This document shows positions 9,822 through 58,148 of a DNA stretch of 64,000 bases, piece after piece (position 1 is the stretch's first letter; each line of letters begins with the position of its first letter). The stretch spans positions 40,145 through 104,144 of the forward strand of contig JAYQBG010000001.1 of the NCBI GenBank assembly GCA_038137215.1, written 5' to 3'. The notes under the pieces were generated by a model that was given only the letters and a program-made list of their open reading frames with translations, made no database searches and was not told the origin of the DNA. This DNA is from Alphaproteobacteria bacterium. Its GTDB lineage: Bacteria > Pseudomonadota > Alphaproteobacteria > UBA6615. A program made the translations under genes and the position numbers.

Positions 9822-12065
9822 ATGGCTGAACTCTCAGAAATTCAGGCGAAATACCTGCCGGTGGCGCAGGACCTGCCGAGCCCGGTGTTTACCGACGATC
9901 ACCCGGCGGGCAACGCGCGCGCGAATTTCGAGCTGGTGTCGGACTACAAGCCCGCCGGCGACCAGCCCCGGGCGATCGAGGACCTGATCGCCGGCCTGGA
10001 CGCCGATGAAAAGGATCAGGTGCTGCTGGGTGTGACCGGGTCGGGCAAGACCTTCACCATGGCCCATGTGATCGAGCGGACGGGCCGTCCGGCCCTACTC
10101 CTGGCCCCTAACAAGACACTGGCCGCCCAGCTGTTTGCGGAGATGAAGGGCTTCTTCCCGAACAACGCGGTCGAGTATTTCGTCTCCTATTACGACTATT
10201 ACCAGCCCGAGGCCTATGTCCCACGCTCGGACACCTATATCGAGAAGGAATCCTCGATCAACGAGCAGATCGACCGGATGCGCCATTCCGCAACCCGTGT
10301 CCTGTTCGAACGGCGCGATGTGATCATCGTCGCCTCGGTGTCCTGTATCTACGGCATCGGGGATGCAGAATCCTATCTGAAGATGACCAAGAACTACGCC
10401 GTCGGCGACCGTGTGGACAGCACGCAAATTCTGCGCGATCTGACCGAACTGCAGTACCGGCGCAACGACTCCAACTTCTATCGCGGCATGCTCCGCGCGC
10501 GCGGTGACACCATCGAAATTTTCCCGGCCCATCTGGAAGACCGGGCCTGGCGGCTGTCCCTGTTTGGCGACGAGATCGAATCCATCAAGGAGTTCGATCC
10601 GCTGACCGGGGCGAGCATGGCCGATCTGGAGACCATCAAGGTTTTCGCCAATTCCCATCACATCACGCCCAAGCCGTCCCTGCAGCAGGCGATCAAGACG
10701 ATCAAGGCCGAGCTCGACAGCCGGCTGACCCAGCTCAACGCCGAGGGGCGCCTGCTCGAGGCGCAACGGATCGAACAGCGCACCACCTTCGATCTGGAAA
10801 TGATCGCGGCAACAGGCGTGTGTCCGGGTATCGAGAACTACTCGCGCCATCTCACCGGCCGCAGCCCGGGTGAGCCGCCGCCCACCCTGTTCGAGTATCT
10901 GCCGCAGGATGCACTTCTCTTTGTCGATGAATCTCACATCACCGTGCCCCAGGTGGGCGGCATGTTCCGGGGCGACCTGTCGCGCAAGGGCACGCTGGCC
11001 GAGTTCGGCTTCCGCCTGCCCTCCTGCGTAGACAACCGACCGCTCAAATTCGAGGAATGGTACGCCATGCGGCCCCAGACGATTTACGTCTCGGCGACCC
11101 CGGGCGACTGGGAGCTGGAGCAGACCGGCGGTGTCTTCGCCGAGCAAGTCGTGCGCCCGACGGGGCTGACGGACCCGGTCTGCATTGTCCGGCCGGTCGG
11201 GACCCAAGTCGATGACCTGATCGCGGAATGTCAGGAGGTCACGGCCAAGGGTGGCCGCGTTCTGGTCACGACGCTGACCAAACGCATGTCGGAGGATCTG
11301 ACCGAATACATGCACGAGCAGGGCCTGAAAGTCCGCTACATGCATTCCGATATCGATACGCTCGAACGGATCGAGATTCTGCGCGATCTGCGCCTCGGCA
11401 CCTTCGATATTCTTATCGGCATCAATCTGTTGCGCGAGGGCCTCGACATTCCCGAATGTGCGCTGGTGGCCATTCTGGATGCCGACAAGGAAGGCTATCT
11501 CCGCTCCAAGACCTCGCTGGTGCAGACCATCGGCCGCGCCGCGCGCAACGTGGACGGCCGGGTGATCCTCTATGCCGACACCATGACCGACAGTCTGACC
11601 GCGGCCCTGGATGAAACCGCACGGCGGCGCGAGAAGCAGCAGGCCTACAACGCCGCGAACGGCATCACTCCGGAATCGATCCGCTCGAATATCTCCGACA
11701 TCCTGCAAAGCGTGTTCGAGCGCGACCGGGTCACCGTCGAGACCGAGGATGACGAAACCAGCCATCTCGTCGGCAAGGATCTGCAGACCTATATCGGCGA
11801 ACTGGAACAGCGGATGCAGACGGCCGCTGCCGATCTGGAGTTCGAGGAAGCCGCCCGGCTGCGCGACGAGATCAAACGTCTGGAAGAGCAGGAACTGGCC
11901 TCCATGGGCGCCGACCTGGACGGCTCACCCTGGCGGGAGGGCAATGACGCCGAAGCCGGACTTCGGGCTCAGCGCGCCGCCCGCACCAAAGCGAATATGA
12001 CCGCCAAACCGCAGCGCGGCTCCGGCAAGGACGGGCGAAAGCGCCGCAGCCGCCGCGGACCTTGA
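9822..12065 (+). CDS. uvrB: excinuclease ABC subunit B
   Basis: 747 aa; helicase motifs [22 protein letters not shown]; UVR domain [17 protein letters not shown] followed by a ~60 aa basic C-terminal extension. Confidence 0.95.
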
Positions 12066-12066
12066 G

Positions 12067-12477
12067 TTAGATTTCCCCGATCTGCTCCATCAGCGCCAGC
12101 CGGTCGCCCAGCACCCAGACCTTGTTGATCTTCCCGCCGGCCATGGTGAACATCGCCACGCCAGCATATTCGATCCACCGGCCCGTGGGCGCATGATCGA
12201 ACAGCCTGCCTTCATGGGTGCCGGTATAGGTCAGACGGGCCACCGCGCGGTCTTCGGTGACAATGGTTTCCTCGATCGCGTTGTGAAAGTCGGGGAAGGC
12301 ATCCCGGATCGTCTGCATATATCCCGCGAAGGCTTCATGACCGGTCACATGCAGACCGATCGACCCGCGGAAATCGATCTTTGGGTCGAGAATTTCGCGC
12401 ATCACCGCGTCGTCCCAGGTGTTCCACATGACATTGAAGAAGGTCTCGACGAGACGGTGATTGTCAGGGGCAGACAT
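12067..12477 (-). CDS. SnoaL-like / ester cyclase (NTF2 fold) family protein
   Basis: 136 aa; FFNVMWNTWDDAVMREILDPKIDFRGSIGLHVTGHEAFAGYMQTIRDAFPDFH pattern typical of ester cyclase family. Confidence 0.65.
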   Translation of the reverse strand: MSAPDNHRLVETFFNVMWNTWDDAVMREILDPKIDFRGSIGLHVTGHEAFAGYMQTIRDAFPDFHNAIEETIVTEDRAVARLTYTGTHEGRLFDHAPTGRWIEYAGVAMFTMAGGKINKVWVLGDRLALMEQIGEI

Positions 12478-12488
12478 GGGCAGCGCCG

Positions 12489-13004
12489 CTACTTCTTCTT
12501 TTTGCGCTTCACGAACAGATCCGCCATCCAGCTCCGGATATCGAGCCGTTCCTTATACTTCTGATGGTAGTCCTCGGCCTCCCAGAAGGTCGGGGCCGGC
12601 TGGATGGTGGTCACGATCGGTTCCTCATACTTTCCCGATGCGTCCTTGGCAGCCTTCGATTCGCGTGCCACCCGTGCCTGATACTCATCATGGGTGAAAA
12701 TCGCAGAGCGGTACTGGGTGCCGATGTCCTTGTCCTGGCGGTTCAGCTGGGTCGGGTCGTGAATCTCCCAGAAGATATCGAGCAGGGTTTCATAGGTGAC
12801 GACCGTGGGATCAAACTCCAGATGCACAACCTCGGCATGACCCGTATCGCCTGTGCAGACATCTTCATAGGTCGGATTTTGCGTGTGGCCGCCGGTGTAG
12901 CCGGCCCAGGACTTGTTCACGCCCTCGACCTGATCGAAGATCTGTTGTGAGTACCAGAAGCGGCCGGTCCCGAATGTCGCAAGCGCCACGTATCTTCTGT
13001 TCAT
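12489..13004 (-). CDS. msrA: peptide-methionine (S)-S-oxide reductase MsrA homolog lacking the catalytic Cys (GCFWG motif reads GRFWY)
   Basis: Strong MsrA blocks YTGGHTQNPTYEDVCTGDTGHAEVV and GTQYRSAIF; N-terminal motif verified in DNA as ggc cgc ttc tgg tac; poly-Lys C-terminus. Confidence 0.8.
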   Translation of the reverse strand: MNRRYVALATFGTGRFWYSQQIFDQVEGVNKSWAGYTGGHTQNPTYEDVCTGDTGHAEVVHLEFDPTVVTYETLLDIFWEIHDPTQLNRQDKDIGTQYRSAIFTHDEYQARVARESKAAKDASGKYEEPIVTTIQPAPTFWEAEDYHQKYKERLDIRSWMADLFVKRKKKK

Positions 13005-13045
13005 GTCGAAATTCCTTCTACCCGTGGGGTCAGCCGCGCCGCCAC

Positions 13046-13875
13046 CTAGGCGGCGGGCGGTCCCGTCAGGACGGCGATCCGTCCGCCGCTCATCAACTCG
13101 ACCCCTGCGCCCTTGAGGGCGGCATAGGCGGCCCGGTTCACCTCGAAACGGGTCCGGAAGTAGCGTGAGCTCGGCACTCAGTACCGCAGGCCAAGAATGA
13201 TCGCACCATAGCCGAAATCATGAATTCCGACCTGGGGATCACCCCCTCAGCCAGGTTCGGAAAATCCTCGAGCGCCGCCGCGATAGCCGAAATAGCCACT
13301 TCCGGGTCGCTGGCGGCCGCGATAACGATCTGGGATTCGACGATCCGATGAGTGTCCGAGTTGACCAGAATCTCACCCACAACCTTCCGGTTGGGAATCG
13401 TGATGCGCTCCTGATCCTCGCCGATGAGAGTGGTTGCCGAAAGGTTGACTTCGTCAACGACACCACTGACATCCTGAACCAAAATGGTGTCCCCGACGGT
13501 GAAAGGGCGGGTGAGGATGATGACCAGCCCGGCGCCGTAGTTCGAGACCGGCCCCTGAATAGCGAAAGACAGGCCAAGGGCCGCCGCACCGCCCAGAGCG
13601 ACCAGCGGAGCGATATCGATCCCGAAATTGCTGAGGGTAATGATGACGACGATCACCATCAGAACGATCTTCACCACAATCCCGGCAAACCGCGAGAGGG
13701 TGACATCGATCTTGCGCCGCTCGCACAGGACGACCACCCGGCGGCTGAGGAACCCGGCGACCTTCAGACCGATCAGCAGGATGACCAGCGCGCCAATCAG
13801 CTGCAAGCCATAGGCAATGGCGAATTCCGACGCGACGTCGATGATGTTGCTGATCATCTGAATTTGCGGTTCCAT
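13046..13875 (-). pseudogene. small-conductance mechanosensitive channel MscS family, disrupted (frameshift in G5 run at 13242..13246 and in-frame TGA at 13178..13180)
   Basis: N-terminal 3-TM and beta-domain region matches MscS; after a +1/-1 shift at GGGGG the conserved C-terminal domain DPQVGIHDFGYGAIILGLRY*VPSSRYFRTRFEVNRAAYAALKGAGVELMSGG reads through a TGA exactly where MscS homologs have Trp (RVW/RYW). Confidence 0.7.
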
Positions 13876-14115
13876 GCCAAATTTCCTTGCGAGGCCGCGA
13901 TCCGGATCGGCAATTTATCGACATTCGGCCCATGCGGCCATGCCGTCCTTCATGATCCGCACCATGGGCGGCGGCAAAGCGCGGGCGCCGCGAACAGGAA
14001 CCCCAGAATTCTCTTGAAAACACGCCGCGCCATCGCGATGTAGTTCGGGCATTGCGACCGTCCTGCCGGGCGGGCCCAACGGGACACAGATTCCGGGAGA
14101 GATAATATCAGCTAT

Positions 14116-15078
14116 ATGGGTTTCCTTCTGGCCGCCATCGGACTGGCGCTGCTTCTGTTTTCGGCAGACTACATGGTGCGCGGGGCGGTCGGCGTGGCCC
14201 GGCGAATTGGTTTGTCGCCGCTGATTATCGGTCTCAGCGTGGTCGCCACCGGCACCTCCGCGCCCGAACTGGTGACAACCCTGACCGCGACGCTCGAAGG
14301 CGCCCCTGACCTGGCGCTCGGCAATGTCATCGGCAGCAATCTGGCCAATATGCTCCTGATTCTTGGGGTTGCCGCCCTGTTGCAACCGGTCACCTGTGCG
14401 CCGCGGGTGATCGCGCGTGACGGCTCCATGGTGCTGGTCGCCACGGTTCTGTTTGTGGGTGTGGCCATGACCGGCGTGATCGTCTTCTGGCACGGCCTCG
14501 TGCTGCTTGGCGCGCTCTTCGCCTATCTAGCCTATACTTATCAGGCCGAACGCAAATCCGAGGCTGACAGCCTGCACGCCAAGGAGGTCGAGGAGGTTTC
14601 GGGTGTGCCCGAACGGGCCTGGGTCGCAACAGGGCTACTGATCGGTGGCCTGATCGGGACCATCGTCGGCGCGCAATTGCTGGTGACCGGCGGTGTCACC
14701 GTTGCCGAATCACTGGGCGTTTCCAAAACCGTCATCGGCCTTACACTCGTGGCCATCGGCACCAGTCTGCCCGAACTCGCGATCGTGGTCGTGGCCAGCA
14801 TGCGCGGCCACACCGATGTCGCCCTGGGCAATGTTCTCGGCAGCAACATCTTCAACCTGCTCGGGATCACCGGCGTGGTCGCACTCGTCTCACCCCTCGA
14901 GGTGTCTGCGAGCCTGCTGCAGTTCGATATCTGGCTGTTGCTCGGCGTGACCGTGTTGCTGATTCCCCTGATGCTGACCGGCGGCCGCCTGTCCCGCCGC
15001 GAGGGTGCGCTTCTGCTTTTTCTCTACGTGGGCTTCCTGGCGTTTCAGTCCGAGAATGTGCGCGGCCTGATCCTCTAG
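14116..15078 (+). CDS. Ca2+/Na+ antiporter, CaCA family (YrbG-like)
   Basis: 320 aa; two alpha-repeat motifs GTSAPELV and GTSLPELA, 10 predicted TM segments. Confidence 0.85.
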   Translation: MGFLLAAIGLALLLFSADYMVRGAVGVARRIGLSPLIIGLSVVATGTSAPELVTTLTATLEGAPDLALGNVIGSNLANMLLILGVAALLQPVTCAPRVIARDGSMVLVATVLFVGVAMTGVIVFWHGLVLLGALFAYLAYTYQAERKSEADSLHAKEVEEVSGVPERAWVATGLLIGGLIGTIVGAQLLVTGGVTVAESLGVSKTVIGLTLVAIGTSLPELAIVVVASMRGHTDVALGNVLGSNIFNLLGITGVVALVSPLEVSASLLQFDIWLLLGVTVLLIPLMLTGGRLSRREGALLLFLYVGFLAFQSENVRGLIL

Positions 15079-15362
15079 GCGATTTGCGCACAACCAAATG
15101 CCAGACAAGTCACTGTTTTGAAACATTTTTTGAAAGCCCGGGCCATCGCACCCATGGCGTTTCAGAGCGATTTTATAAGTGGAAACAGCACGCTGTCTGG
15201 GCGCCCATTTTTTGGGCAACCCGGTAAACTCGCAATGATTTCCGGGGTAAGTGACAATCTGCGGCCCATCGCTACACAGACTTATCCACGTGAACGGGGG
15301 ACAACACGTTTCGCCATTCACCGGTTGTGAAGGCCCCCTTGGCACGGGTATTTAGCTATCTG

Positions 15363-17387
15363 ATGACTGATACCGCCGAGAACCAACCCACGACCGAAAC
15401 GGACACGTCCGCGCCCGGGAACGGGCTGGACGTGATCCGCGCGCGGTTGCGGACCCTGCCCGAAGGACCCGGCGTCTATCGCATGCTGAATGGTGACGGA
15501 GACGCGCTGTACGTTGGCAAGGCGCGCAACCTGAAACGCCGGGTGACCAACTACACCCAGTTGACGCGCCTGCCCTATCGCCTGCAGCGCATGGTGGCCG
15601 AGACCGTCGAGCTGGAGATTGTCACCACCCACACCGAGGCTGAGGCGCTGCTCCTCGAATCCAACCTCATCAAGCGGCTGGCCCCGCGCTACAATGTGCT
15701 GCTGCGCGACGACAAGAGCTTTCCCTATATCCTGCTCACCGGCCACATGGACCGGCAGACCAGCAAGACCGGGGCCGACCCCAATGTACGCAAAGCCCGG
15801 AAAGATCTCAAATCCCGGCGTCAAAACCGGGCCGGGCCCGATCCGGCCGACTGGCCGGGCGTGGTCAAATACCGCGGCGCGCGCACATTGCCGGGTGAGT
15901 ATTTCGGGCCCTTTGCATCGGCCGGTGCCGTCAATCGCACTCTCAATGCGCTCGAGCGCGCCTTCCTGCTGCGCAGTTGCTCCGACGCTGTCTTCTCGGG
16001 CCGCAGCCGCCCCTGCCTCAAATATCAGCTCAAGCGCTGTGTGGCACCCTGTGTCGGGCATGTCACGGAAGACGACTACAATCTCCTGATCGATCAGGCG
16101 CGCAGCTTTCTGACAGGCCGATCCCGCGAGATACAGGACGAGCTTGCCGCCGCCATGCAGGACGCTTCCGACCGCATGGAATTCGAGGCCGCCGCCCGCT
16201 ACCGCGACCGCATCCGCGCCATGACGCAAATTCAGTCCCATCAGGACATCAACATTGAGAATCTGGACATCCGCGACGCCGATATCGTGGCCGCCGAAGA
16301 AAGCGGCGGGCGCATCTGTATTCAGGTCTTCTTCTTCCGGTCCGGCCGCAACTACGGCAACCGGGCCTATTTTCCGCGACACGACAAATCAGAGGATATC
16401 GAGGCCGTACTTACGGCGTTTCTCGGCCAGTTCTACGAGAACAAACCGGCGCCGCCGGATATTTTGCTGAGTCACAAGCTGCCCGAGATCGATCTGATTG
16501 CCGAAGCACTCAGCGTGCGGACCGAGCGTAAGGTCTCCGCTTCTGTCCCCCAACGCGGCGCCAAGCGGAAGCTTGTCGATCACACCCGCACCAATGCACG
16601 CGATGCCCTCGAACGCCGGCTGGCGGAAAGCGCGACCACCCGCGACCTGATGGCCCAGGTCGGCGAACTGTTCGGGCTCGATTCACCGCCCGAACGGATC
16701 GAAGTCTATGACAATTCCCACGTCCAGGGCTCTCATGCGACCGGGGCGATGATTGTGGCGGGACCGGACGGCTTCATCAAACCGGCCTATCGTCGGTTCA
16801 ACATGCGCGGCGCGGCCACGAAGGATCGCGACGGATACAGCCCCGGCGATGATTTTGCGATGATGAACGAAGTCCTCACCCGGCGATTTTCCCGCGCCCT
16901 GAAAGAAGACCCGGACCGTACGAAAGGCCAGTGGCCGGACCTTATCCTGATCGATGGCGGCAAGGGTCAGCTCTCATCTGCGGCAAACGCACTCTCGGAG
17001 CTGGGAATCGATGATGTGCCCATCGTCGGGATTGCCAAGGGGCCCGACCGGGATGCAGGCCGTGAACATTTCTTCACCGTTGATGGCGATCCGGACGGGT
17101 TCCAGCTTCCGCCGCGCGACCCGGTTCTCTACTATCTGCAACGACTTCGGGATGAATCGCACAGGTTCGTGATCGGCGGACATCGACAGAAACGATCACG
17201 CGCGATCACGCATAACCCGCTCGACGAGATTCCCGGTATCGGCGCGCGGCGCAAGCGGGCCCTACTCAACCATTTCGGCTCAGCCCGCGCGGTGTCCGAA
17301 GCCGGGCTTCAGGATCTGGAAAAGGTGGACGGCATCAACAATACCGTGGCACGTCGTATATACGATTTCTTTCATACGGCCGCCTGA
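15363..17387 (+). CDS. uvrC: excinuclease ABC subunit C
   Basis: GIY-YIG motif GVYRMLNGDGDALYVGKARNLKRRV, UvrBC-interaction and RNase H-like/HhH C-terminus; alternative GTG start at 15327; contains a ~30 aa Lys/Arg-rich insertion after FPYILLTGH. Confidence 0.9.
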   Translation: MTDTAENQPTTETDTSAPGNGLDVIRARLRTLPEGPGVYRMLNGDGDALYVGKARNLKRRVTNYTQLTRLPYRLQRMVAETVELEIVTTHTEAEALLLESNLIKRLAPRYNVLLRDDKSFPYILLTGHMDRQTSKTGADPNVRKARKDLKSRRQNRAGPDPADWPGVVKYRGARTLPGEYFGPFASAGAVNRTLNALERAFLLRSCSDAVFSGRSRPCLKYQLKRCVAPCVGHVTEDDYNLLIDQARSFLTGRSREIQDELAAAMQDASDRMEFEAAARYRDRIRAMTQIQSHQDINIENLDIRDADIVAAEESGGRICIQVFFFRSGRNYGNRAYFPRHDKSEDIEAVLTAFLGQFYENKPAPPDILLSHKLPEIDLIAEALSVRTERKVSASVPQRGAKRKLVDHTRTNARDALERRLAESATTRDLMAQVGELFGLDSPPERIEVYDNSHVQGSHATGAMIVAGPDGFIKPAYRRFNMRGAATKDRDGYSPGDDFAMMNEVLTRRFSRALKEDPDRTKGQWPDLILIDGGKGQLSSAANALSELGIDDVPIVGIAKGPDRDAGREHFFTVDGDPDGFQLPPRDPVLYYLQRLRDESHRFVIGGHRQKRSRAITHNPLDEIPGIGARRKRALLNHFGSARAVSEAGLQDLEKVDGINNTVARRIYDFFHTAA

Positions 17388-17403
17388 CTCGACGGCAAAA
17401 CGG

Positions 17404-17970
17404 ATGCACCAGATGACCATCCCGAATCTGCTGACGTTTTCACGGGTCGCCCTGATCCCGTTGCTGATCCTTCTGCTGTTTCTTGAAGGTGTGCAATTCC
17501 GCTGGTGGGCCGTCGGACTCTTCGCATTTCTGGCGATCACCGACTATCTGGATGGGTATCTCGCCCGGAAACTGCATCAGCACAGCGAGCTGGGTGCGCT
17601 GATCGATCCCATTGCCGACAAGGTCCTGGTGGGGGCAATCGTCATCGCGCTGGTCGGCACCGGTGACATCGCACGCTGGGACATCGCCGGGGCAATTCTG
17701 ATCCTGAGCCGCGAATTTCTGGTTTCGGGACTGCGTGAATTTCTGGCGCTGCGCAATCTGCCGCTGCCGGTCACCAGGCTCGCGAAATGGAAGACAACCG
17801 TGCAGCTCGTCGCGATCACACTCTACCTTCTGCCCCCGCTTGGCATCGCCGGGCAATCGGGGATCACATCGGCCGTGTGGTGGCTTGCCACGGTGCTGAC
17901 GCTGGTCACCGGATACGACTACGTCACAACTGCCACCCGGCGGCTCTCAGATCGCAGTCCGGAGCGCTGA
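17404..17970 (+). CDS. pgsA: CDP-diacylglycerol--glycerol-3-phosphate 3-phosphatidyltransferase
   Basis: CDP-alcohol phosphotransferase motif DYLDGYLAR ... GALIDPIADK. Confidence 0.85.
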   Translation: MHQMTIPNLLTFSRVALIPLLILLLFLEGVQFRWWAVGLFAFLAITDYLDGYLARKLHQHSELGALIDPIADKVLVGAIVIALVGTGDIARWDIAGAILILSREFLVSGLREFLALRNLPLPVTRLAKWKTTVQLVAITLYLLPPLGIAGQSGITSAVWWLATVLTLVTGYDYVTTATRRLSDRSPER

Positions 17971-17971
17971 C

Positions 17972-18520
17972 GTGAACGCCGAGACAAAGATTGCGGGCAT
18001 CGTCGGCTGGCACAACAGCGGCAAGACCACCCTCCTGGTGGCCGTCGTTGAGGAGCTCGTGTCACGCGGCCATCGCGTCTCGACGGTCAAACACGCGCAT
18101 CACGCCCTCGATGTGGACACGCCCGGCAAGGATTCCTGGCGGCATCGCAACGCCGGCGCGACGGAGGTCATGGTCGGATCCAAATCACGCTGGGCCCTGA
18201 TGCACGAACTGCGCGGTGCAGCGGAACCGGATCTGGACACGCTGATCGCCCGAATGAGCCCTGTCGATCTCGTGCTGGTCGAGGGCTTCAAGACCGCGCA
18301 GCATGACAAGATCGAGGTGTATCGGGACGGAATTGAAGAACCACCCATCGCTTATACCGACAGCCGGGTGGTGGCTGTCGCGAGCGATGTCCGCCTCGAA
18401 CGCCTTGGCAAGGGCGTGACCCGGCTCAATATCAACGAGCCTCGCGCGGTCGCCGATTTCATCGAACACCATTGGGCGTTGCAGCACCGCACCCCGGCGC
18501 AGTCCCCGCAGCGAAGCTGA
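17972..18520 (+). CDS. mobB: molybdopterin-guanine dinucleotide biosynthesis adapter MobB
   Basis: P-loop GIVGWHNSGKTTL and MobB family body. Confidence 0.85.
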   Translation: MNAETKIAGIVGWHNSGKTTLLVAVVEELVSRGHRVSTVKHAHHALDVDTPGKDSWRHRNAGATEVMVGSKSRWALMHELRGAAEPDLDTLIARMSPVDLVLVEGFKTAQHDKIEVYRDGIEEPPIAYTDSRVVAVASDVRLERLGKGVTRLNINEPRAVADFIEHHWALQHRTPAQSPQRS

Positions 18521-18523
18521 GCC

Positions 18524-19801
18524 ATGGCACAGCTTTCCGACGATTGTTTTGCCCCCGGTGAGGGACTGTTGCCCGCAGAGACGGCCCTTCAGACTCTGCA
18601 GGACCGGCTTGAGACCGTCGTGGAAACAGAAATCCTGTCGCTTCAGGATGCCGCCGGACGCATTCTCGCCCGGGACGTGATTTCCGAACGGGATGTCCCG
18701 CCCCACGACAATTCCGCCGTGGACGGATACGCGGTGTACTACAACGACCTGGCCGACAACGAGGATACCGAACTTCCGGTGATCGGCCGGGCAGCCGCCG
18801 GACAGCCCCTGGGCGGAGTCATGAACTCCGGGACGGCCCTGCGTATTTTCACCGGCGCCCCGATTCCGGGCGGCGCGGATGGCCCGGACACGATCTATAT
18901 GCAGGAAGACAGCCGGACCCGCACCGAGGGGGACACGACCTTTGTGATCCTGCCACCGGGAATTTCCCGCGGCGCCAATCGCCGGTCACGCGGGGAGGAT
19001 GTGCCGGCCGGGGAAACCGTGCTGCGCCGTGGCGACCGTCTGCGTCCGCAGGATATCGGACTTGCCGCCTCGCTCGGCCTCTGCGAACTCCATGTCTTCG
19101 CGCCCCTGACAGTCGGAGTCCTTTCCACGGGAGATGAGGTGTTTGAGCCGGGCGCCAGCATGCCGGAAGGCGGCATCTATGATGCGAACCGGCACGCCCT
19201 GATCGCGGTTCTCTCGGATATGGGATGTACCGTGAAGGATCTGGGAATCATCCCGGACCAGCCCGCAAAGATCGCCCGAGCCCTGAAATCCGCCGCCGAC
19301 ACCTGCGATGCCGTGATTTCAACCGCCGGCATGTCGGTCGGAGAAGAAGATCATCTGGCCGCCATGGTACGCGAGATGGGCTCGCTGTACTTCTGGAAGG
19401 TCGCCATCAAGCCCGGTCGACCGATCGCCTTCGGGCAGATTGGCCAAACGCCCTTTATCGGTCTGCCGGGCAACCCTGCCGCCATGATGGTCACGTTTCT
19501 GCGTATGGCACGCCCGGCATTGCTCCGGCTGGCCGGGCTCCGGGATGCCAGGCCCCGCCTCTATCCGGTCCGGGCCGGGTTTGCGCACCGCAAGAAAGAA
19601 AACCGCAGGGAATATGTCAGAGTGCATCTGGAAGACGGTGCCGATGGTATTCCGGTCGCCCGCAAACACCCGCGCAGCGGTGCCGGTATTCTCTCCTCGC
19701 TGGTGGGATCTGACGGTCTAGTTGAATTGCCCGAGGAGATGACCCAACTTTCGGAAGGAACAATGGTATCCTTTCTGCCCTTCACGGAAGTGGCCCGATG
19801 A
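18524..19801 (+). CDS. moeA: molybdopterin molybdotransferase MoeA
   Basis: 425 aa; gephyrin-like MoeA domain order, GGVSMG-like MSVGEEDHL block. Confidence 0.9.
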   Translation: MAQLSDDCFAPGEGLLPAETALQTLQDRLETVVETEILSLQDAAGRILARDVISERDVPPHDNSAVDGYAVYYNDLADNEDTELPVIGRAAAGQPLGGVMNSGTALRIFTGAPIPGGADGPDTIYMQEDSRTRTEGDTTFVILPPGISRGANRRSRGEDVPAGETVLRRGDRLRPQDIGLAASLGLCELHVFAPLTVGVLSTGDEVFEPGASMPEGGIYDANRHALIAVLSDMGCTVKDLGIIPDQPAKIARALKSAADTCDAVISTAGMSVGEEDHLAAMVREMGSLYFWKVAIKPGRPIAFGQIGQTPFIGLPGNPAAMMVTFLRMARPALLRLAGLRDARPRLYPVRAGFAHRKKENRREYVRVHLEDGADGIPVARKHPRSGAGILSSLVGSDGLVELPEEMTQLSEGTMVSFLPFTEVAR

Positions 19802-20049
19802 AAATTCTGTATTTTGCCTGGATGCGTCAGCGAACCGGCCTCTCCCACGAAGAGATCGATCTGCCCGAAACCGTCGCCACGGTGGATACCCTCGTGGACT
19901 GGCTGGAAACGCGCGGCGATGGCTACCGCGACGCCTTTGCCAAGCGCGAGGTGATCCGGGCTGCGGTCAATCAGGAATACGTACAATTCGACCATCCCGT
20001 CGCAAACGAAGACGAGATTGCATTCTTTCCGCCCGTAACGGGCGGCTAG
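19798..20049 (+). CDS. moaD: molybdopterin synthase sulfur-carrier subunit MoaD
   Basis: 83 aa ending in GG; overlaps moeA stop by 4 nt. Confidence 0.85.
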   Translation: MKILYFAWMRQRTGLSHEEIDLPETVATVDTLVDWLETRGDGYRDAFAKREVIRAAVNQEYVQFDHPVANEDEIAFFPPVTGG

Positions 20050-20061
20050 AGAGACCGTCCC

Positions 20062-20541
20062 GTGATCAAGGTCCAGGAAGAAGACTTCGATATCGGTGCT
20101 GAACTTGCCGCGCTGAGCGCCGGCGATACCTCCATCGGGGCGGTGGCGAGTTTCACCGGCCTGGTCCGGGACATGGCGCCGATCGAGGGTGAAACCCACA
20201 ATATCCGCACCATGACCCTGGAGCATTATCCGGGAATGACCGAGAAGAAGCTCGCGGAGATTGAGGCCGAAGCCAACGAGCGCTGGCCGCTGGCCGCAAG
20301 CCTAATCATCCACCGGTACGGCACACTGGCCCCGGGCGACCGGATCGTGTTCGTGGCCTGCGCCTCGGCACACCGGCAGGCGGCCTTCGATGCCTGCCAG
20401 TTCCTGATCGACTGGCTGAAAACCGAAGCCCCGTTCTGGAAGCTCGAAGAAACCGATGGCGGCGGTGTCTGGGTCGATGCCCGTGAATCGGACGATCAGG
20501 CGGCCGCGCGCTGGAACAAGGCTAACGACACGTCCACCTGA
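20062..20541 (+). CDS. moaE: molybdopterin synthase catalytic subunit MoaE
   Basis: 159 aa MoaE family (VASFTGLVRD ... LEHYPGM). Confidence 0.9.
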   Translation: MIKVQEEDFDIGAELAALSAGDTSIGAVASFTGLVRDMAPIEGETHNIRTMTLEHYPGMTEKKLAEIEAEANERWPLAASLIIHRYGTLAPGDRIVFVACASAHRQAAFDACQFLIDWLKTEAPFWKLEETDGGGVWVDARESDDQAAARWNKANDTST

Positions 20542-20552
20542 GTCCTCTCCGC

Positions 20553-21452
20553 TTACTCGGCGGCAGCTGCCGCCGCGCGGCCGTTCACAAGGTCGTCGTA
20601 ATCCTGCATCAGATTGCGCGTGATCTCACCCACCTCGAAGGTGTGATCCTCGGCAATCTGGGCAATCGGCGTGACTTCCGCCGCCGTCCCGGTCACGAAC
20701 ATCTCCGAGGCATTGTTGAGTTCCTCGGGCATGATCGGGCGCTCGATGACTTCATAGCCGCGCGCCTTTGCCAGATTGATTACCGTCTTGCGGGTGATCC
20801 CGTTGAGGAAACAATCGGGCGTCGGCGTGTGGATCTTGCCGTCGATCACCAGGAACATGTTCGCACCCGTGGTCTCCGCAAGCTGACCGCGCCAGTCGAG
20901 CATCAGAGCATCGGAAAAGCCCTTCGCTTCCGCCGCATGCTTGGACAAGGTGCAGATCATGTAGAGGCCGGCGGCCTTGGCATGCACCGGCTGGGTCTTC
21001 GGATCGGGCCGGTTGTAGATGGCCCAGTCAATCTTGATCCCCTTCATGCGAGCCTCGGGCGAGAAGTAGGACGGCCACTGCCAGACAGCGCTTCCGAGAT
21101 GGATCCTGCAGTTCTGGGCCGAGACGCCCCTCTGCTCCGGCCCACGCCACGCGGCCGGGCGGATATAGGCGTCCTGATAGCCGGACTTCTCAAGCGCTTC
21201 CCGGCAGACGGCGTCCAGTTCGGCCACCGAATACGGCACTTCGAAGCCAAGCATTCCGGCCGAATCATGCAGCCGCTGATTGTGCGCCGCCAGTTCGAAA
21301 ATCTCGCCGTTGTAAGCGCGCATTCCTTCAAAGACACAGGATGCGTAATGCAGGGCGTGGCTGAGGTAATGCACCTTGGCATCGCGCCAGGGAACAAACG
21401 CCCCATCCATCCAGATAACACCATCGCGGTCATCATATGGAACTTCTTGCAT
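20553..21452 (-). CDS. ilvE: branched-chain amino acid aminotransferase
   Basis: 299 aa from ATG at 21452 (MQEVPYDDRDGVIWMDGAFVPW...); fold-type IV PLP aminotransferase blocks; AAGGAC 7 nt upstream. Confidence 0.9.
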   Translation of the reverse strand: MQEVPYDDRDGVIWMDGAFVPWRDAKVHYLSHALHYASCVFEGMRAYNGEIFELAAHNQRLHDSAGMLGFEVPYSVAELDAVCREALEKSGYQDAYIRPAAWRGPEQRGVSAQNCRIHLGSAVWQWPSYFSPEARMKGIKIDWAIYNRPDPKTQPVHAKAAGLYMICTLSKHAAEAKGFSDALMLDWRGQLAETTGANMFLVIDGKIHTPTPDCFLNGITRKTVINLAKARGYEVIERPIMPEELNNASEMFVTGTAAEVTPIAQIAEDHTFEVGEITRNLMQDYDDLVNGRAAAAAAE

Positions 21453-21462
21453 CGTCTGAGTC

Positions 21463-21490
21463 CTTGATACTTTTGAGTTCTTGATACTTT
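21463..21490. repeat. tandem direct repeat CTTGATACTTT x2 (period 17) in ilvE 5' leader
   Basis: Seen directly: tcCTTGATACTTTtgagttCTTGATACTTTcgaacg; second copy overlaps the ilvE ribosome-binding region on the minus strand. Confidence 0.4.
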
Positions 21491-21550
21491 CGAACGTTTC
21501 AACCCTGCCAGGAGACAAATAATTCCGCAACACGGTTGCGTGGCGTAACA

Positions 21551-21570
21551 TTGACCTGTAAATAAGTCAA
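21551..21570. promoter_or_regulatory. candidate MarR operator (TTGAC-N10-GTCAA palindrome) abutting marR-like start
   Basis: TTGACctgtaaataaGTCAA immediately 5' of ATG 21572; a further TTGACC follows the ATG. Confidence 0.35.
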
Positions 21571-21571
21571 T

Positions 21572-22078
21572 ATGGTTGACCTTAATTCGAGCCCGGCCCT
21601 GCACCCGCTTCGCGAGGAAGATCTGCGTCAGGGGATCGAATTGCTGATTTATGCCTACCGGGATTTCACCGGTGAGCCGGACGCCATGCTCGAAAAATAC
21701 GGGCTCGGACGTGCGCATCATCGGGTGATCTACTTCGTGGGGCGAAACCCGGGAATCACCGTCACCGAACTTCTTGAAATTCTGCGGATCACCAAGCAAA
21801 GCCTCTCCCGGGTTCTGGGTCATCTTCTGGAGAACGACTTTATCCTGCAGCGCGCGGACCCGGCCGACCGCCGCCGCAAGCAGCTCACCCTTTCCGAAAA
21901 GGGCAAGAACCTGGAGCACAAACTCACCTCGACCCAAATGGAACGGTTTGCGAGAGCCTATCGCGACGCGGGACCCGAGGCGGTGGAAGGATTTCGGCGA
22001 GTGCTAATCGGAATCGTGGAACCGGAAGACCGCGCACAGGTCCGGCCTGCTGCCATTCGCCCGCAAAACCGCCGCTGA
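21572..22078 (+). CDS. MarR family transcriptional regulator
   Basis: 168 aa; winged-helix block GITVTELLEILRITKQSLSRVLGHLLENDFILQRADPADRRRKQLTLSEKG. Confidence 0.8.
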   Translation: MVDLNSSPALHPLREEDLRQGIELLIYAYRDFTGEPDAMLEKYGLGRAHHRVIYFVGRNPGITVTELLEILRITKQSLSRVLGHLLENDFILQRADPADRRRKQLTLSEKGKNLEHKLTSTQMERFARAYRDAGPEAVEGFRRVLIGIVEPEDRAQVRPAAIRPQNRR

Positions 22079-22123
22079 CGGCGGCAGCACAACGGTCGCA
22101 GACGCGATATACTCGTCCGGGCT

Positions 22124-22804
22124 ATGGAAGACACTCCCCATATTCTGGTCGTTGATGATGACCGCCGGCTTCGCGAACTTCTGAAGAAGTTCCTGACCGA
22201 CAGTGGATTTCGCGTGACCACTGCGGAAAGCGCCGGGGAGGCCCGCGAGAAACTTGTCAGCATCCAGTTCGACCTGCTGGTCCTGGATCTGATGATGCCC
22301 GGCGAGAGCGGTTTGTCGCTGACCAGCGGGTTGCGGGAAACCAACATGGTCCCGATCCTGATGCTGACCGCGATGGCCGAGCCCGAGGACCGGATCGACG
22401 GACTGGAACGGGGCGCGGACGATTATCTGACCAAGCCCTTCGAACCCCGCGAACTCGTTGCACGCATCCGCTCAATCCTGCGGCGTGCGGGCAATCAGCA
22501 AAGTGACTCCGGCGAATTTCAGTTCGGCGAACATGTGTATGATTCCCAGCGTCAGATCCTGACAGGCCCGGACGGCACGGTCGCTCTGACAGGGGCGGAA
22601 GCACGCCTGCTTGACGTCCTGGCTGCCTCACCGGGGACTCCGGTGAGCCGGGAAGCCCTCCAGGAACAAAGCGGGATCGGCGGCAGTGCGCGTGCTGTCG
22701 ATGTGCAGGTGACGCGGCTTCGGCGTAAGATCGAACCCAATCCCCGGACGCCACGCTATCTGCAGACCATCCGCGGACAGGGTTACGTTCTGTGGCCCGA
22801 CTAA
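22124..22804 (+). CDS. ompR: OmpR-family two-component response regulator (OmpR ortholog-like)
   Basis: ILVVDDDRRLRELLKKFLTDSGFRV ... DLLVLDLMMPGESGLSL ... winged-helix C-terminus RYLQTIRGQGYVL; close to E. coli OmpR throughout. Confidence 0.8.
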   Translation: MEDTPHILVVDDDRRLRELLKKFLTDSGFRVTTAESAGEAREKLVSIQFDLLVLDLMMPGESGLSLTSGLRETNMVPILMLTAMAEPEDRIDGLERGADDYLTKPFEPRELVARIRSILRRAGNQQSDSGEFQFGEHVYDSQRQILTGPDGTVALTGAEARLLDVLAASPGTPVSREALQEQSGIGGSARAVDVQVTRLRRKIEPNPRTPRYLQTIRGQGYVLWPD

Positions 22805-22825
22805 ACCGATGACGCATGAGCGCCC

Positions 22826-24178
22826 ATGTCCGCGATGAAAGACATCTTCCGCATGCCCCGGGACCTTCGGCTGTCGCTGAAGCGATTTCTGCCGCGCGGT
22901 CTGCTCGCGCGCTCCCTGCTGATTATCGTCGTGCCGCTGGTGCTGCTGCAGATCGTCAGCGGCATTATCTTTTACGACCGGCACTGGTCGAATGTGAGCC
23001 GCCATCGCGCCAATGCCCTGGCCGGTGATATCGCCCTGATCTTGGAGCTGATCAATCGGGACACGCTCAACAACAATCAGGCTGCGATCTTCAGTCTTGC
23101 CCGCAGCACCCTCGATTTGATCATCGAATACGAACCGGACGCCATTCTGCCCAACACCGAATTCAAACCTTCGGGCAATCTGGAAGTGACGCTGGCGCGC
23201 TCAATCAATGAAATCGTGCAACGTCCGGCCGTGATCGACACGACGAGCACCTACAACCGGGTGCTGATCGACCTGCAGTTGCCATCCGGCATCCTGCGCG
23301 TATCGGCCAACGAAGAACGGTTGATCAGCTCGACCACAAAGATCTTCATTCTGTGGATGACCGGGACCTCGCTGATTCTTTTCGCGGTCGCGACCTTGTT
23401 CATGCGCAATCAGGTCAGCCCGATCCGGCGTCTGGCGACCGCCGCAGAAAACTTCGGCAAGGGCCGCGACACCCCGAATTTTAAACCCTCGGGCGCAAGC
23501 GAGGTGCGCCAGGCAGCCACGGCCTTCATGGCCATGCGCAGCCGGCTCGAGCGCCAGATCCAGCAACGCACGGACATGCTGGCGGGGGTCAGCCATGATC
23601 TACGGACTCCGCTGACCCGGATGAAACTCCAGATCGCGATGCTCGATAAAAATGCCGAGATCGAAGAACTGAGCTCGGATGTCGCGGCGATGGAAAGCAT
23701 GATCGAGGGCTATCTCAACTTCGCCCGCGGTGAAGGCACCGAGGAACGCCAAATCGTCAATGCGGTAGACCTGCTGGAGGAAGTCGCACGGGACGCCGGT
23801 CGGAATGGTCCCCCCGTCAAAGTCACCATCACGGACGAGGTCGAATTGCCGCTGGCGCGCAATGCCATGCGGCGTTGCCTGACAAACCTTGTCGAAAACG
23901 CCCGACGGCACGGCGATGTCACGGAACTCACGATCCAGCGAAACGGACGCGTCCTGGAAATCTATGTCGATGACAACGGCCCCGGAATCGCGCCAGAATT
24001 GCGCGAGGACGTGTTCCGCCCGTTCTTCCGGATCGATTCCTCCCGCAACACAGAGACCGGCGGGACCGGCCTGGGCCTGTCGATCGCGCAGGATGTCGTC
24101 AGCGGTCACGGCGGAGAGATCAGTCTGACCGACTCCCCCCTCGGCGGTCTGCGCGTCGCGCTTCGGATTCCGATCTAG
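22826..24178 (+). CDS. envZ: EnvZ-like osmosensor histidine kinase
   Basis: Two N-terminal TM segments, HAMP, H-box LAGVSHDLRTPLTRMKLQIAML, G-boxes DDNGPGIAPE / GTGLGLSI; alternative starts at 22835 or 22853. Confidence 0.8.
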   Translation: MSAMKDIFRMPRDLRLSLKRFLPRGLLARSLLIIVVPLVLLQIVSGIIFYDRHWSNVSRHRANALAGDIALILELINRDTLNNNQAAIFSLARSTLDLIIEYEPDAILPNTEFKPSGNLEVTLARSINEIVQRPAVIDTTSTYNRVLIDLQLPSGILRVSANEERLISSTTKIFILWMTGTSLILFAVATLFMRNQVSPIRRLATAAENFGKGRDTPNFKPSGASEVRQAATAFMAMRSRLERQIQQRTDMLAGVSHDLRTPLTRMKLQIAMLDKNAEIEELSSDVAAMESMIEGYLNFARGEGTEERQIVNAVDLLEEVARDAGRNGPPVKVTITDEVELPLARNAMRRCLTNLVENARRHGDVTELTIQRNGRVLEIYVDDNGPGIAPELREDVFRPFFRIDSSRNTETGGTGLGLSIAQDVVSGHGGEISLTDSPLGGLRVALRIPI

Positions 24179-36281: not shown

Positions 36282-36833
36282 TTATCCGCAGTCTCCGCTC
36301 AGCAGCAGGCGGCGCAGGTTCTTCGAGACTGCTTCTTCGCCAATCCAGAGCCGCAGGAGCGGGCGGAATACGTCATCGTCCGGCATTTCACGGCGGACCG
36401 CGCCATTCACGATAAGCCGGGCGCCCATTTCCGGTGCATAGACGATACGGACCTCATCACCCGACTCGAAATTCGCATAGATCTCGCGCACGGTCTGTTC
36501 CAGTTCCTCACGGACCATCCGGTCCAGCGGCTATGACCAGCTCTGCGGTATGTTGTCGGGAAGATCCCCGTAAAGAATTTTCAGCTGGACCGCCTTGGGC
36601 GTGCTGGCTGCCAGAATCTCATCCTGACCGAGCCCCGCCCGCGGCAGATAGAGCGCAGCCGCATAGAGGTCGAAAAACAGCGCCTCGCGGGCCCCGCACC
36701 CATGCAATTGCAGCGTCTGCGCCCCCGCCCGGATCTGTTCGGGAAAAGTGACACCCTCGATCTGTGCATAAGCGGCCGGCGTCATGAGGCTGGCAGCCCA
36801 GATAACCAGTCCGAAAATCATCGGCTTGCGCAT
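36282..36833 (-). pseudogene. chalcone-isomerase-like family secreted protein interrupted by in-frame TAG (36531..36533)
   Basis: ORFs 36531..36833 and 36282..36518 are in the same frame and together form one ~183 aa Chalcone_3-type protein (signal peptide, GVTFPEQIRAGAQTLQLHGCGAREALFFDLYAAALYLP ... then ELEQTVREIYANF ... LLRLWIGEEAVSKNLRRLL); sequence reads ...PQSWS-TAG-PLDRMVREE... Confidence 0.65.
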
Positions 36834-39893: not shown

Positions 39894-40679
39894 TCAGTGG
39901 TGAACGTCAGACCACATCTTGCGTTTGGCCGCGTACAGAACCGCGCTGAAGATGATCAGGAACAGGATCACCTTGTAGCCCATGGATTTACGCTCTTCCA
40001 TCTCGGGTTCGGCCGCCCAGTGCAAGAAATTTGTTACGTCCCATGCCATTTGTTCGATCGTTGCGGGTGTACCGTCGGTGTATTCCACACCGTCTTCCCA
40101 GAGCGGCTGCGCCATCGCGATCAGGCTACCGCGGAAATACGGGTTGTAGTTGGCGCCCTCAGGCACTTCGACATCTGCAGGCGGTTCCTCGTAGCCAGTC
40201 AGAAGCGCATAGATGTAGTCCGCGCCGCCCAGATGCGCCTTAACCTGAAGCGAGAGATCAGGCGGTGCAGCACCATTGTTGGCCGCCGCCGCAGCCGCTG
40301 CATTCGGGAAGGGTGAATCAAACCGGTCTGATGGAATGGCCGGCCGCGTGAACATTTCACCTTCATCATTCGGCCCATCGGTGACATCGAAACCAGCCGC
40401 AATGACCTTGACCTCGTCCTCGGTAAATCCGAGCTCTTCGAGGTTGCGATAGGCGACCTGCTTCAAGCCATGGCAGCCCGAGCAGACTTCCAGATAGACC
40501 TGCAGGCCACGCTGGGCGGATGCGCGATCGAAGGTTCCGAAGACACCCTCGAACTGCCAGTCCTGATTGTCCGGTTCCTTGGCTTCCCCCGCCGCAAACG
40601 CTGCGGTGGACGCAAGGCTGGCAACGACGGTCAGACCCGTGGCTGCCGCTGCGCGGCGAAGATTGCAAAAGATACCCAT
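39894..40679 (-). CDS. petC: cytochrome c1
   Basis: Heme motif CSGCHGL, C-terminal TM anchor; start overlaps petB stop by 1 nt (TAATG). Confidence 0.9.
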   Translation of the reverse strand: MGIFCNLRRAAAATGLTVVASLASTAAFAAGEAKEPDNQDWQFEGVFGTFDRASAQRGLQVYLEVCSGCHGLKQVAYRNLEELGFTEDEVKVIAAGFDVTDGPNDEGEMFTRPAIPSDRFDSPFPNAAAAAAANNGAAPPDLSLQVKAHLGGADYIYALLTGYEEPPADVEVPEGANYNPYFRGSLIAMAQPLWEDGVEYTDGTPATIEQMAWDVTNFLHWAAEPEMEERKSMGYKVILFLIIFSAVLYAAKRKMWSDVHH

Positions 40680-42013
40680 TATGCCTTCTCCATCGGCTTG
40701 GCAGTTAAGGCCGCACCCGATGTGCCACCACCCAGAACAGCCTCGGAAATACTCTTCGGCACGGGCTTTGGACGCTCGAATATTCCCAACAACGGCATTA
40801 GCACCAGGAAGTGGAAGAAATACCAGAAGGTGGAGATGTACCCCAGATGGATGATGTGGAAACCTTCCACGCCCGAGAACACCGGTACATCCGTGGGCTT
40901 ACCGCCGACATAGCCGAGAATGAAGCAGTCGATCACAAGGATCCAGAAGAACCACTTGTAGAGCGGCCGGAACTTCGCACTGCGCACCGGCGAACGATCA
41001 AGCCAGGGCAGCAGGAATAACACGAAGATCGCGCCGAACATGGCAATGACGCCGCCGAGCTTGGCTTCGATCAACGTCTGACCGAGTATCACGATGTCGA
41101 AATCGATCGAACGGAGAATCGCGAAGAACGGCAGGAAGTACCATTCGGGCACGATATGTGCGGGCGTGTTCAGCGGGGCCGCTTCCAGATAGTTCTCCGG
41201 CTCACCCAGATAGGACGGGGCGTAGAACACGAAGAACGCCATGATCGTGACGAAGACCGCCAGACCGACGCTGTCCTTGACCGTGTAGTAGGGATGGAAC
41301 GGCACCGTATCCTGCGGTCCCTTGGGGTCCACACCAAGCGGGTTGTTGGAGCCCGTGACGTGGAGCGCAATCACATGCAGCACGACCACACCCAGGATCA
41401 GGAACGGGAAGAGATAGTGCAGCGCGAAGAAGCGGTTCAGTGTGGGGTTGTCAACCGAGAAGCCGCCCCAGAGCAACGTCACAATGCTGTCACCGACCAG
41501 CGGCACGGCAGAGAACAGGTTCGTGATAACCGTCGCGCCCCAGAAACTCATCTGACCCCAGGGCAGGACGTAGCCCATGAAGGCCGTGGCCATCAACAGT
41601 ACAAGGATGACCACACCGAGCATCCAGAGCAGTTCGCGCGGCTGCTTGTAGGAGCCGTAATACATGCCGCGGAACATGTGGATATAAACGGCGATGAAGA
41701 AGAAACTTGCACCGTTCTGATGCAGATAGCGCAGCAGCCAGCCATAGTTCACGTCGCGCATGATGCGTTCGACGGAATCGAAGGCCAGCGCCGTGTTCGG
41801 CTGATACTGCATGGCCAGGAAAATCCCGGTCGCGATCATCATCACGAGCATGAAGGTCAGGATCGCCCCGAAGTTCCAGAACCAGTTGAAGTTCCTGGGT
41901 GCCTCGAACTCGGCGTATTCCTTCTGAAGATACGTAAAGACCGGCAGGCGACTGTCGATCCACTTGACGAGGCCGCTACCTGTGCCTCCGGTCTGATGTG
42001 TTCCGGCGCTCAT
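40679..42013 (-). CDS. petB: cytochrome b
   Basis: 444 aa; conserved His ligands and PEWY-type motif ([17 protein letters not shown]). Confidence 0.95.
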
Positions 42014-44330: not shown

Positions 44331-44720
44331 ATGACCTCCATCACCCGGTGACTGCTCGCGCCCCTTCTCACTCTTGCGGTCCTGTTTGGCACCAGCGTAG
44401 TCCAGGCTGACGACCTGCCGCTCCAGGCATTCTATGGCCACTATCAGGGCTCCGGTGTCGCAGAAAACTCAGATAGCCTGTACTTCGGTGTCACCGTCCG
44501 CGACCTCGATGTGCGCAGCCCCGACGGACTCGGCTGGGCGAGCATCAATGAGCCCACACTGACCGTTCACGTGCTGCGGATTACCGACACCGGCGGCTAC
44601 GTGATTCAAACCTATGACCGGACGCTGGAAGGCACCGGCATGAAGCTCAAATTCGTGAATGTTGCCAATGGCGAGCCACAGCGTGAGGTCGAAGCCCGGC
44701 TCGTGAAAGTCGGCAACTAA
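44331..44720 (+). pseudogene. small secreted protein (paralog of the following gene) with TGA at codon 7 inside the signal peptide
   Basis: ATG 44331: MTSITR-TGA-LLAPLLTLAVLFGTSVVQA|DDLPLQAFYGHYQGSGVAENSD...; same frame as ORF 44511..44720; remainder is a compact version of the downstream 196 aa protein. Confidence 0.5.
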
Positions 44721-44732
44721 CCCGACTCATCT

Positions 44733-45323
44733 ATGACAGGATTTTCCATGAACCCCGGTTCAAGCCTCCGCGCCGCGCTGGTCGCATCCGTTGTTGTTCT
44801 TTTCAGCGGCGTGAGCGCGCATGCCAGTGACGCGGTCGACAAGTTCTTTGGTTCCTATGTGGGGTCCGGAACCGCAGAGCGGGTTGACCGCAAGGAAAGC
44901 GAAATCCGCGACCTGGACGTGACGGTGGAGAGCTACAAGGATGACGGTTTCAAGCTGAAATGGATCACGGTCGTGCGTGGCGCCGATGGCGCACGCACCG
45001 GGGAAGACGTGAAACGGCGCGAGGTCGAGGAAAATTTCGTGCCCGTCGAGGACAAGGAAAACGTCTTTGTTTTATCCGCCGATGGCGTTCTGTTCCAGAA
45101 GTCCGAACTGCCGAACCCGTTGCTCGGACAAGCCATCAGCTGGGCCTCCATCGACGGCAACGTGATGAAGGTCTATTCGCTGGCAATCGGCGAGACCGGG
45201 ACCTCCGAACTGCAGGTCTATCGGCGCACTTTGACAGAAAAGGGCATGGGCATCGTCTTCATCCGGCTTCAGGACGATGACGTGAAAGTCCGTATGCAGG
45301 GCACACTGGTCCGTACCCAGTAG
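44733..45323 (+). CDS. secreted hypothetical protein (tandem paralog)
   Basis: Signal peptide AALVASVVVLFSGVSAHA|SD; shares FxGxYxGSGxAE ... RDLDV ... and C-terminal YxRTLTEKGMGIVF blocks with the upstream gene. Confidence 0.6.
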   Translation: MTGFSMNPGSSLRAALVASVVVLFSGVSAHASDAVDKFFGSYVGSGTAERVDRKESEIRDLDVTVESYKDDGFKLKWITVVRGADGARTGEDVKRREVEENFVPVEDKENVFVLSADGVLFQKSELPNPLLGQAISWASIDGNVMKVYSLAIGETGTSELQVYRRTLTEKGMGIVFIRLQDDDVKVRMQGTLVRTQ

Positions 45324-58074: not shown

Positions 58075-58148
58075 TGGCTGGGGCGGCAGGGATCGAACCT
58101 GCGATCACGGGATCAAAACCCGATGCCTTACCGCTTGGCTACGCCCCA
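58075..58148 (-). tRNA. tRNA-Gln (anticodon TTG)
   Basis: Reverse complement TGGGGCGTAGCCAAGCGGTAAGGCATCGGGTTTTGATCCCGTGATCGCAGGTTCGATCCCTGCCGCCCCAGCCA folds as cloverleaf with 7-bp acceptor, anticodon loop TTTTGAT, T-arm GCAGG-TTCGATC-CCTGC, encoded CCA; near-identical architecture to E. coli tRNA-Gln. Confidence 0.85.

Follow-up and report, generated by a model that had tools for sequence, protein, structure and literature searches.

The locus lies on the minus strand of the window, by which we mean the whole 64-kb stretch of DNA that was analysed, and holds an interrupted gene of the mscS family with an intact msrA gene close behind it (Table 1). The order of genes around this site, a Na/Ca-exchanger gene, mscS-msrA-SnoaL and uvrB, is common to the window and to contigs of the same species, and msrA, which has a single synonymous difference from its conspecific counterparts, is a possible co-transcribed neighbour of mscS. 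A scan for promoters and terminators around mscS returned nothing exceeding shuffle expectation, and the sole match to Rfam and tRNA models in the 64-kb window was a gene for tRNA-Gln (58075-58148). Likewise, no second MscS paralog was found in the window, as tblastn with the repaired protein (described below) matched only the two pieces of this one gene.

Table 1. Position and basis of the interrupted mscS-family gene, its parts, its neighbour and two further decayed genes in the window
Feature	Position	Strand	Basis and remarks
Probable mscS-family pseudogene, ancestral frame of 276 codons	13046-13875	-	ATG 13873-13875, TAG 13046-13048; PF05552, PF21088, PF00924 and, after repair, PF21082; collinear with conspecific contigs
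Run of five Gs, 1-nt deletion relative to six Gs in conspecifics	13242-13246	-	DNA alignment
TGA nonsense codon, formerly TGG (Trp233)	13178-13180	-	DNA alignment; TGG in outgroup L003
Open ORF as found, 245 aa	13138-13875	-	Translation; ends at TGA 13138-13140; no PF21082 match
Orphaned 3' remnant, last 43 residues of the C-terminal domain (VPSSRYF...PPAA)	13046-13177	-	
Intact msrA (PMSR)	12489-13004	-	41 nt downstream of mscS, same strand
Chalcone-isomerase-like gene (PF16036), decayed	36282-36833	-	In-frame TAG 36531-36533
Small secreted-protein gene, decayed	44331-44720	+	TGA 44349-44351; 159-nt deletion near 44518

When the minus strand from 13046 to 13875 was translated in all three frames, the frame that opens at the ATG could be followed for 211 residues, ending ...AALEDFPNLAEG, and shifts after codon 211, where conspecific contigs have a run of six Gs in the context GAG GGG GGT (E-G-G). 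Left uncorrected, it continues through 34 out-of-frame codons to the first TGA; the resulting 245-aa ORF is thus composed of 211 native residues, which extend from the TM helices through the beta-domain into the first part of the C-terminal domain, and of 34 residues read out of frame. Addition of one G restores the frame as ...AEGGDPQVGIHDFGYGAIILGLRY, which then meets the second TGA; beyond this codon the repaired frame runs on as VPSSRYFRTRFEVNRAAYAALKGAGVELMSGGRIAVLTGPPAA up to the TAG, and the stretch regained by the inserted G is GDPQVGIHDFGYGAIILGLRY. In tblastn, the repaired protein finds the out-of-frame 3' part at an E-value of 1.8e-37, and the homology of this part is therefore not due to chance. 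The two lesions fall at codons 212 and 233, 21 codons apart. The second is a G to A transition on the coding strand, TGG to TGA, at the sole Trp codon of mscS. As this codon accounts for two of the ten routes by which a GC to AT transition could create a stop in the gene, no special cause has to be sought for the appearance of TGA at precisely the conserved Trp. The run of six Gs, in turn, is the longest homopolymer of the intact gene.

Membership of the MscS family is clear from domain content as well as from solved structures. With or without repair of the translation, the pore-lining TM helices were matched by PF21088 (E=2.5e-08) and PF05552 (E=7e-07); the middle beta-domain was matched by PF00924 (E=8e-15, residues 109-172). 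PF21082, the C-terminal alpha/beta domain (residues 180-260), was matched only when the G was inserted and the TGA was read as Trp, and is missing from the 245-aa product that is actually encoded. By name, the profiles matched are MS_channel_1st_1, MS_channel_1st and MS_channel_2nd, to which MS_channel_3rd is added after repair. The best matches among solved structures were MscS channels, led by 7DLU (278 aa; E=2.5e-31, residues 20-266), and the alignment with Escherichia coli MscS (6RLD/2OAU) spans residues 18-244 with an E-value of about 4e-25, placing Trp233 opposite W240 within FVVRVW-SNSGD. An earlier reading of this DNA, made from the sequence alone, had called the gene an MscS channel, placed a frameshift at GGGGG (13242-13246), noted a TGA at the Trp of the collinear E. 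coli segment FVVRVW SNSGD and put the two lesions within 25 codons of each other; each of these claims agrees with the three-frame translation, the conspecific GGGGGG, the domain matches and the structural alignment. The comparison with MscS family profiles that it had proposed for the conceptual translation likewise recovers all four Pfam domains, PF21082 only after repair.

The E. coli channel (YggB; PDB 2OAU, 6RLD) also indicates what has been lost. The repaired protein and E. coli MscS are of similar size (276 and 286 aa) and have the same Pfam architecture (PF05552, PF21088, PF00924 and PF21082), whereas the copy in the window is frameshifted at about the equivalent of residue 219, is stopped at the equivalent of W240, and lacks most of the cytoplasmic alpha/beta domain as well as the C-terminal beta-barrel. 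We take the position of the frameshift to be inside the cytoplasmic alpha/beta domain of the MscS structure, and the truncated product would presumably also be without the C-terminal beta-barrel. For these reasons, the product can be expected to have lost its function as a channel. Judged by its domain architecture, the 245-aa product is most likely non-functional.

Intact versions of the gene were found in members of the same species and beyond it. Two intact metagenomic proteins (P0001 and P0003) match the repaired 276-aa protein from end to end at 99 % identity, and the protein search returned intact sequences of 276 aa, or of 270 aa where a later start had been called, that are 97-99 % identical to it. 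In the protein alignment all relatives are uninterrupted through ...LAEGGDPQ...LRYWVPSS.... No close relative ends at LRY, the outcome that the sequence-only reading had named as contrary to its claim; all continue through W-VPSSRYF. At the level of DNA, seven conspecific contigs that were compared in full (L001, L002, L068-L071 and L075) are syntenic with the window at ~99 % nt identity and carry six Gs and TGG. Six more, retrieved via their identical msrA product (L079-L087, of which L081, L084 and L085 re-sample contigs already counted), have the same intact allele, so that the G tract is exactly six Gs long in 13 out of 13 distinct short-read conspecific contigs. Overall, six Gs, TGG and an intact reading frame for 276 aa were seen in at least 15 contigs of the species. 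A scan of JGI metagenomes for both alleles of the G tract found one contig only, L075, which is intact. The repair suggested by the sequence-only reading, one inserted G and TGA changed to TGG, thus reproduces the exact sequence of every short-read conspecific contig, and the single transition that it had invoked for the stop codon is upheld by TGG in these contigs and in the outgroup.

The outgroup, a contig of 92 % nt identity (L003), has the intact state at both lesion sites, including TGG. Since conspecifics and outgroup alike carry the intact states, both lesions of the window are derived. The same holds for three private missense changes in mscS, E273G, T148N and N70I (window positions 13062, 13445 and 13679), all of which are derived relative to the outgroup. 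The intact conspecific orthologues (P0001, P0003, L001, L002, L068-L071, L075 and L079-L087) are 98.6-98.9 % identical to the repaired protein at the amino acid level, and differ from the copy in the window by having GGGGGG and TGG and by lacking these three changes. Among 24 more distant alphaproteobacterial loci every locus that holds the whole gene is uninterrupted, with the exception of L028. This locus (L028:9770-10504), from a relative of ~85 % aa identity belonging to another species (MAG ME_XS_2303_bin_7), has an orthologous mscS that is likewise degraded, by an internal deletion of ~200 nt that removes the TM1-TM2 region and by a 1-nt deletion in a G run; here either an independent loss or an assembly error may be responsible.

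Both lesions recur in a second assembly. The exact 245-aa frameshifted product is also encoded on a Logan contig of run SRR26337518 (L067), which is 100 % identical to window positions 13061-14454 (1394 nt) and has both lesions and all 15 private SNPs of that interval; this contig is probably from the same sample as the window, and as such controls for the assembler and not for the library. Two other contigs of the run match the window over 9676 nt with three mismatches (L076) and over 2459 nt with one mismatch (L088), neither with a gap. From the alignments, the total of zero gaps over these 12.1 kb argues for SRR26337518 being an Illumina run. Window-like sequence was likewise found on a contig (L077) of a second run, SRR26337577. 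The series SRR26337510-78 consists of metagenomes from the Brisbane River/Moreton Bay estuary, sequenced as NovaSeq 150-bp paired-end reads with the addition of Nanopore R9.4 data for two sites (PMC11758582).

That this study included some Nanopore data has a bearing on whether the gene might be intact in the organism, with the missing G and the A in place of G being consensus errors, as long reads are classically prone to losing 1 nt from a 6-nt homopolymer. A conspecific MAG apparently belonging to the same project series, GCA_038144615.1 (L074, L078), likewise has five Gs at the mscS site and shows 100 gap openings in 18 kb. In the window, however, the G-run deletion in mscS is the sole coding indel in 23.4 kb of comparison with short-read conspecific contigs. 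Furthermore, the second lesion is a substitution, two errors inside 64 nt would be very unlikely at the level of error observed, and the independent assembly of SRR26337518 repeats both lesions together with the private SNPs. The private differences of the window, moreover, comprise 55 missense and 112 synonymous changes, and this mark of filtering by selection sets them apart from random errors. Taken together, the comparisons indicate that the mscS lesions are very probably real in the DNA, and we regard consensus error as improbable.

The MAG GCA_038144615.1 (JAYQOC010000005.1) itself differs from the window by ~5 indels per kb in homopolymers, has many split housekeeping genes (cytochrome b, ychF, lgt, BKACE and others) and is unreliable for pseudogene calls. 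It combines five Gs with TGG, and we considered reading the order of the lesions from it; this was discarded as uninformative in view of its indel rate and its mixture of alleles from both lineages. Two minor differences between contigs may be recorded here. The only other indel in the 23.4 kb is at 15127, in the intergenic region from the Na/Ca exchanger to uvrC, where the window lacks 2 nt (CA/TG) that are present in the four conspecific contigs spanning the site (L068, L069, L070 and L075). In the JGI contig L075 (Ga0181558_10002599), an extra G at the equivalent of window position 12284 would frameshift the SnoaL-like gene (12067-12477); the remaining conspecific contigs read as the window does.

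The window could also be a consensus drawn from a mixed population in which intact and broken alleles, or single lesions, segregate, the gene then being polymorphic rather than lost. The species is microdiverse, with L076 and L077 each differing from the window at three sites, the MAG L074/L078 joins window-like to clade-like alleles, and the Logan contig L067 stops at 13061, adjoining the private SNP at 13062. Against these hints, both lesions stand in cis in two assemblies, no intact allele was found in any SRR263375xx assembly, and all look-ups of intact proteins led to other projects. We therefore consider a segregating polymorphism slightly less probable again than consensus error.

A full-length channel could in principle be produced from the lesioned DNA itself, if slippage by -1 occurred on G GGG G during translation or transcription and UGA was read through as Trp, or under an alternative code. 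If tRNA-Gly slipped by -1 on GAG-GGG-G, the sequence AEGGDPQ would be restored exactly, and near-cognate read-through of UGA usually inserts Trp, which is here the ancestral residue. Nevertheless, two events of low efficiency would be needed together, the sequence flanking the lesions is no different in the intact alleles, and neither lesion is present in any conspecific or distant relative with an intact frame, leaving nothing that is conserved. In addition, TGA terminates more ORFs of the window than any other stop codon (32 of 68), and uvrB, uvrC and similar long genes are free of in-frame TGA codons. Given this use of TGA as a stop and the lack of conservation of either lesion, we rejected recoding and programmed frameshifting, to which we assign hardly any weight.

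A code in which UGA specifies Trp was examined as a candidate in its own right and discarded, given these counts of stops and the end-to-end coverage of Pfam profiles in nearly all other genes. Such codes (translation table 4; for example in Mycoplasma and the GC-rich alphaproteobacterial symbiont Hodgkinia) have in common with the present case a TGA where relatives have Trp, but in the window TGA is the commonest genuine stop and no other conserved gene has TGA at a Trp position.

Equally remote is a phase-variable contingency locus, at which the G tract would switch the channel on and off reversibly. The frameshift does sit in a homopolymeric G tract; this tract, however, is only six Gs long and does not vary among the 13 short-read conspecific contigs, the sole exception being the error-prone MAG, and slippage cannot reverse the downstream TGA.

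With regard to the age of the inactivation, the changes private to mscS in the window amount to nine substitutions (four missense or nonsense and five synonymous) in addition to the deletion. The ratio of 4:5 does not differ from the 51:80 of the neighbouring genes (Fisher p=0.74), and the density of 10.8 substitutions per kb lies within the 1-20 per kb seen in these neighbours. Thus, neither the N:S ratio nor the density of substitutions gave a signature of relaxed selection in mscS when compared with neighbouring genes. As both measures resemble those of the neighbours, the inactivation would appear to be recent relative to the ~0.7-0.9 % divergence of the strain from its sister clade, an interpretation that the data fit, without proof.

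We then considered mscS against the background of the strain as a whole. Polarization with the outgroup L003 over window region 11469-23874 assigned 51 derived changes to the window lineage and 13 to the stem of the sister clade (binomial p=2e-6), which makes the private branch of the strain about fourfold longer than that of the sister clade, and 35 of the 51 (69 %) are GC to AT. Acceleration, a bottleneck or an effect of the outgroup are possible causes of this excess. Pfam searches of the ORFs of the window, combined with a check of abutting ORFs in the same frame, showed end-to-end coverage of the profile in nearly all Pfam-matched genes and brought to light two further decayed genes (Table 1). 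In the chalcone-isomerase-like gene, the codon that is TAG in the window is Glu (GAG) in the conspecific P0121 and in all relatives, and TAG recurs at this codon in Logan assemblies of SRR26337518 as well as of SRR26337577. In the small secreted-protein gene, CGA has become TGA at codon 7, where relatives (P0127-P0135) are full length and have Arg, and an in-frame deletion of 159 nt (53 codons) has occurred between short direct repeats; both lesions are repeated in Logan contig L088.

Thus, at least three of ~62 genes in the 64 kb (~5 %) are disabled, by five lesions: three GC to AT nonsense mutations, one in each gene, one homopolymer deletion and one repeat-mediated deletion of 159 nt. All three genes are intact in every other conspecific that was sampled. 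A pseudogene content of ~5 % is within the range for free-living bacteria. Given the long, GC to AT-biased branch and the two additional decayed genes, the mscS lesions can be viewed as part of an ordinary strain-level decay of accessory genes rather than as the outcome of a special mechanism.

We consequently favour, with a probability of roughly 0.86, the interpretation that the locus is a genuine, recently formed and strain-specific mscS-family pseudogene in one lineage of an uncultured estuarine alphaproteobacterium. On comparative sequence grounds it has what would define a pseudogene, namely homology to a functional gene and disabling lesions that intact orthologues do not share. Two independent loss-of-function mutations would have arisen on the lineage of the window. 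One would be the deletion that reduced six Gs to five at codon 212, for which slippage in the longest homopolymer is the presumed mechanism, and the other the G to A transition that turned the only Trp codon (233) into TGA. Either lesion alone would remove most of the C-terminal cytoplasmic alpha/beta domain together with the terminal beta-barrel, and because the heptameric vestibule is built from these parts, the product of 245 aa most likely does not function. Whichever lesion came first would have inactivated the gene and rendered the second neutral. The loss was presumably tolerated, for example through other Msc paralogs encoded outside the window.

A strain-specific mscS pseudogene of this description is an already well-known kind of feature. 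Like the ordinary bacterial pseudogenes recorded in many genomes, it combines a frameshift in the longest homopolymer with a GC to AT nonsense mutation, has intact close orthologues and is one of several in its strain; nothing sets it apart from them, and the lack, as yet, of a detectable excess of missense changes points to a young pseudogene. For annotation, the locus should be entered as an mscS pseudogene and not as a 245-aa 'mechanosensitive channel' with a 43-aa hypothetical protein. Beyond this, it offers a well-controlled case of strain-level decay, as intact conspecific alleles and an outgroup polarize every change. What remains, the strain-wide pattern of a long GC to AT-biased branch with fresh pseudogenes, is only mildly interesting. 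If, however, the excess of GC to AT changes and of pseudogenes extended across the genome, the strain could be used to gauge the pace at which accessory genes, here an osmotic safety valve, are lost in natural estuarine populations. We think it unlikely that the genome of this strain has entered an early phase of decay, or that its supply of mutations is raised. Were this the case, the loss of MscS as a safety valve would be among the symptoms of a change in the strain's way of life or in the size of its population, for instance through a bottleneck, a niche of stable salinity, or association with hosts or particles.

Two additional observations concern other genes of the window. The decayed small secreted-protein gene is a member of an unannotated, Pfam-less family of about 183 aa with a signal peptide. 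Two tandem paralogs of this family occupy 44331-45323 on the plus strand, both with the motifs F(Y/F)G.Y.GSG and RDLDV. Of the two, the downstream one (44748-45320, plus strand) is intact. Members of the family occur widely in metagenomes of marine Alphaproteobacteria (112 matches). The gene for cytochrome b (40679-41612), finally, carries 36 differences private to the window within 934 nt (38.5 per kb), of which 32 are synonymous. At ~5x the local background, this divergence looks like import by recombination from a more divergent lineage.
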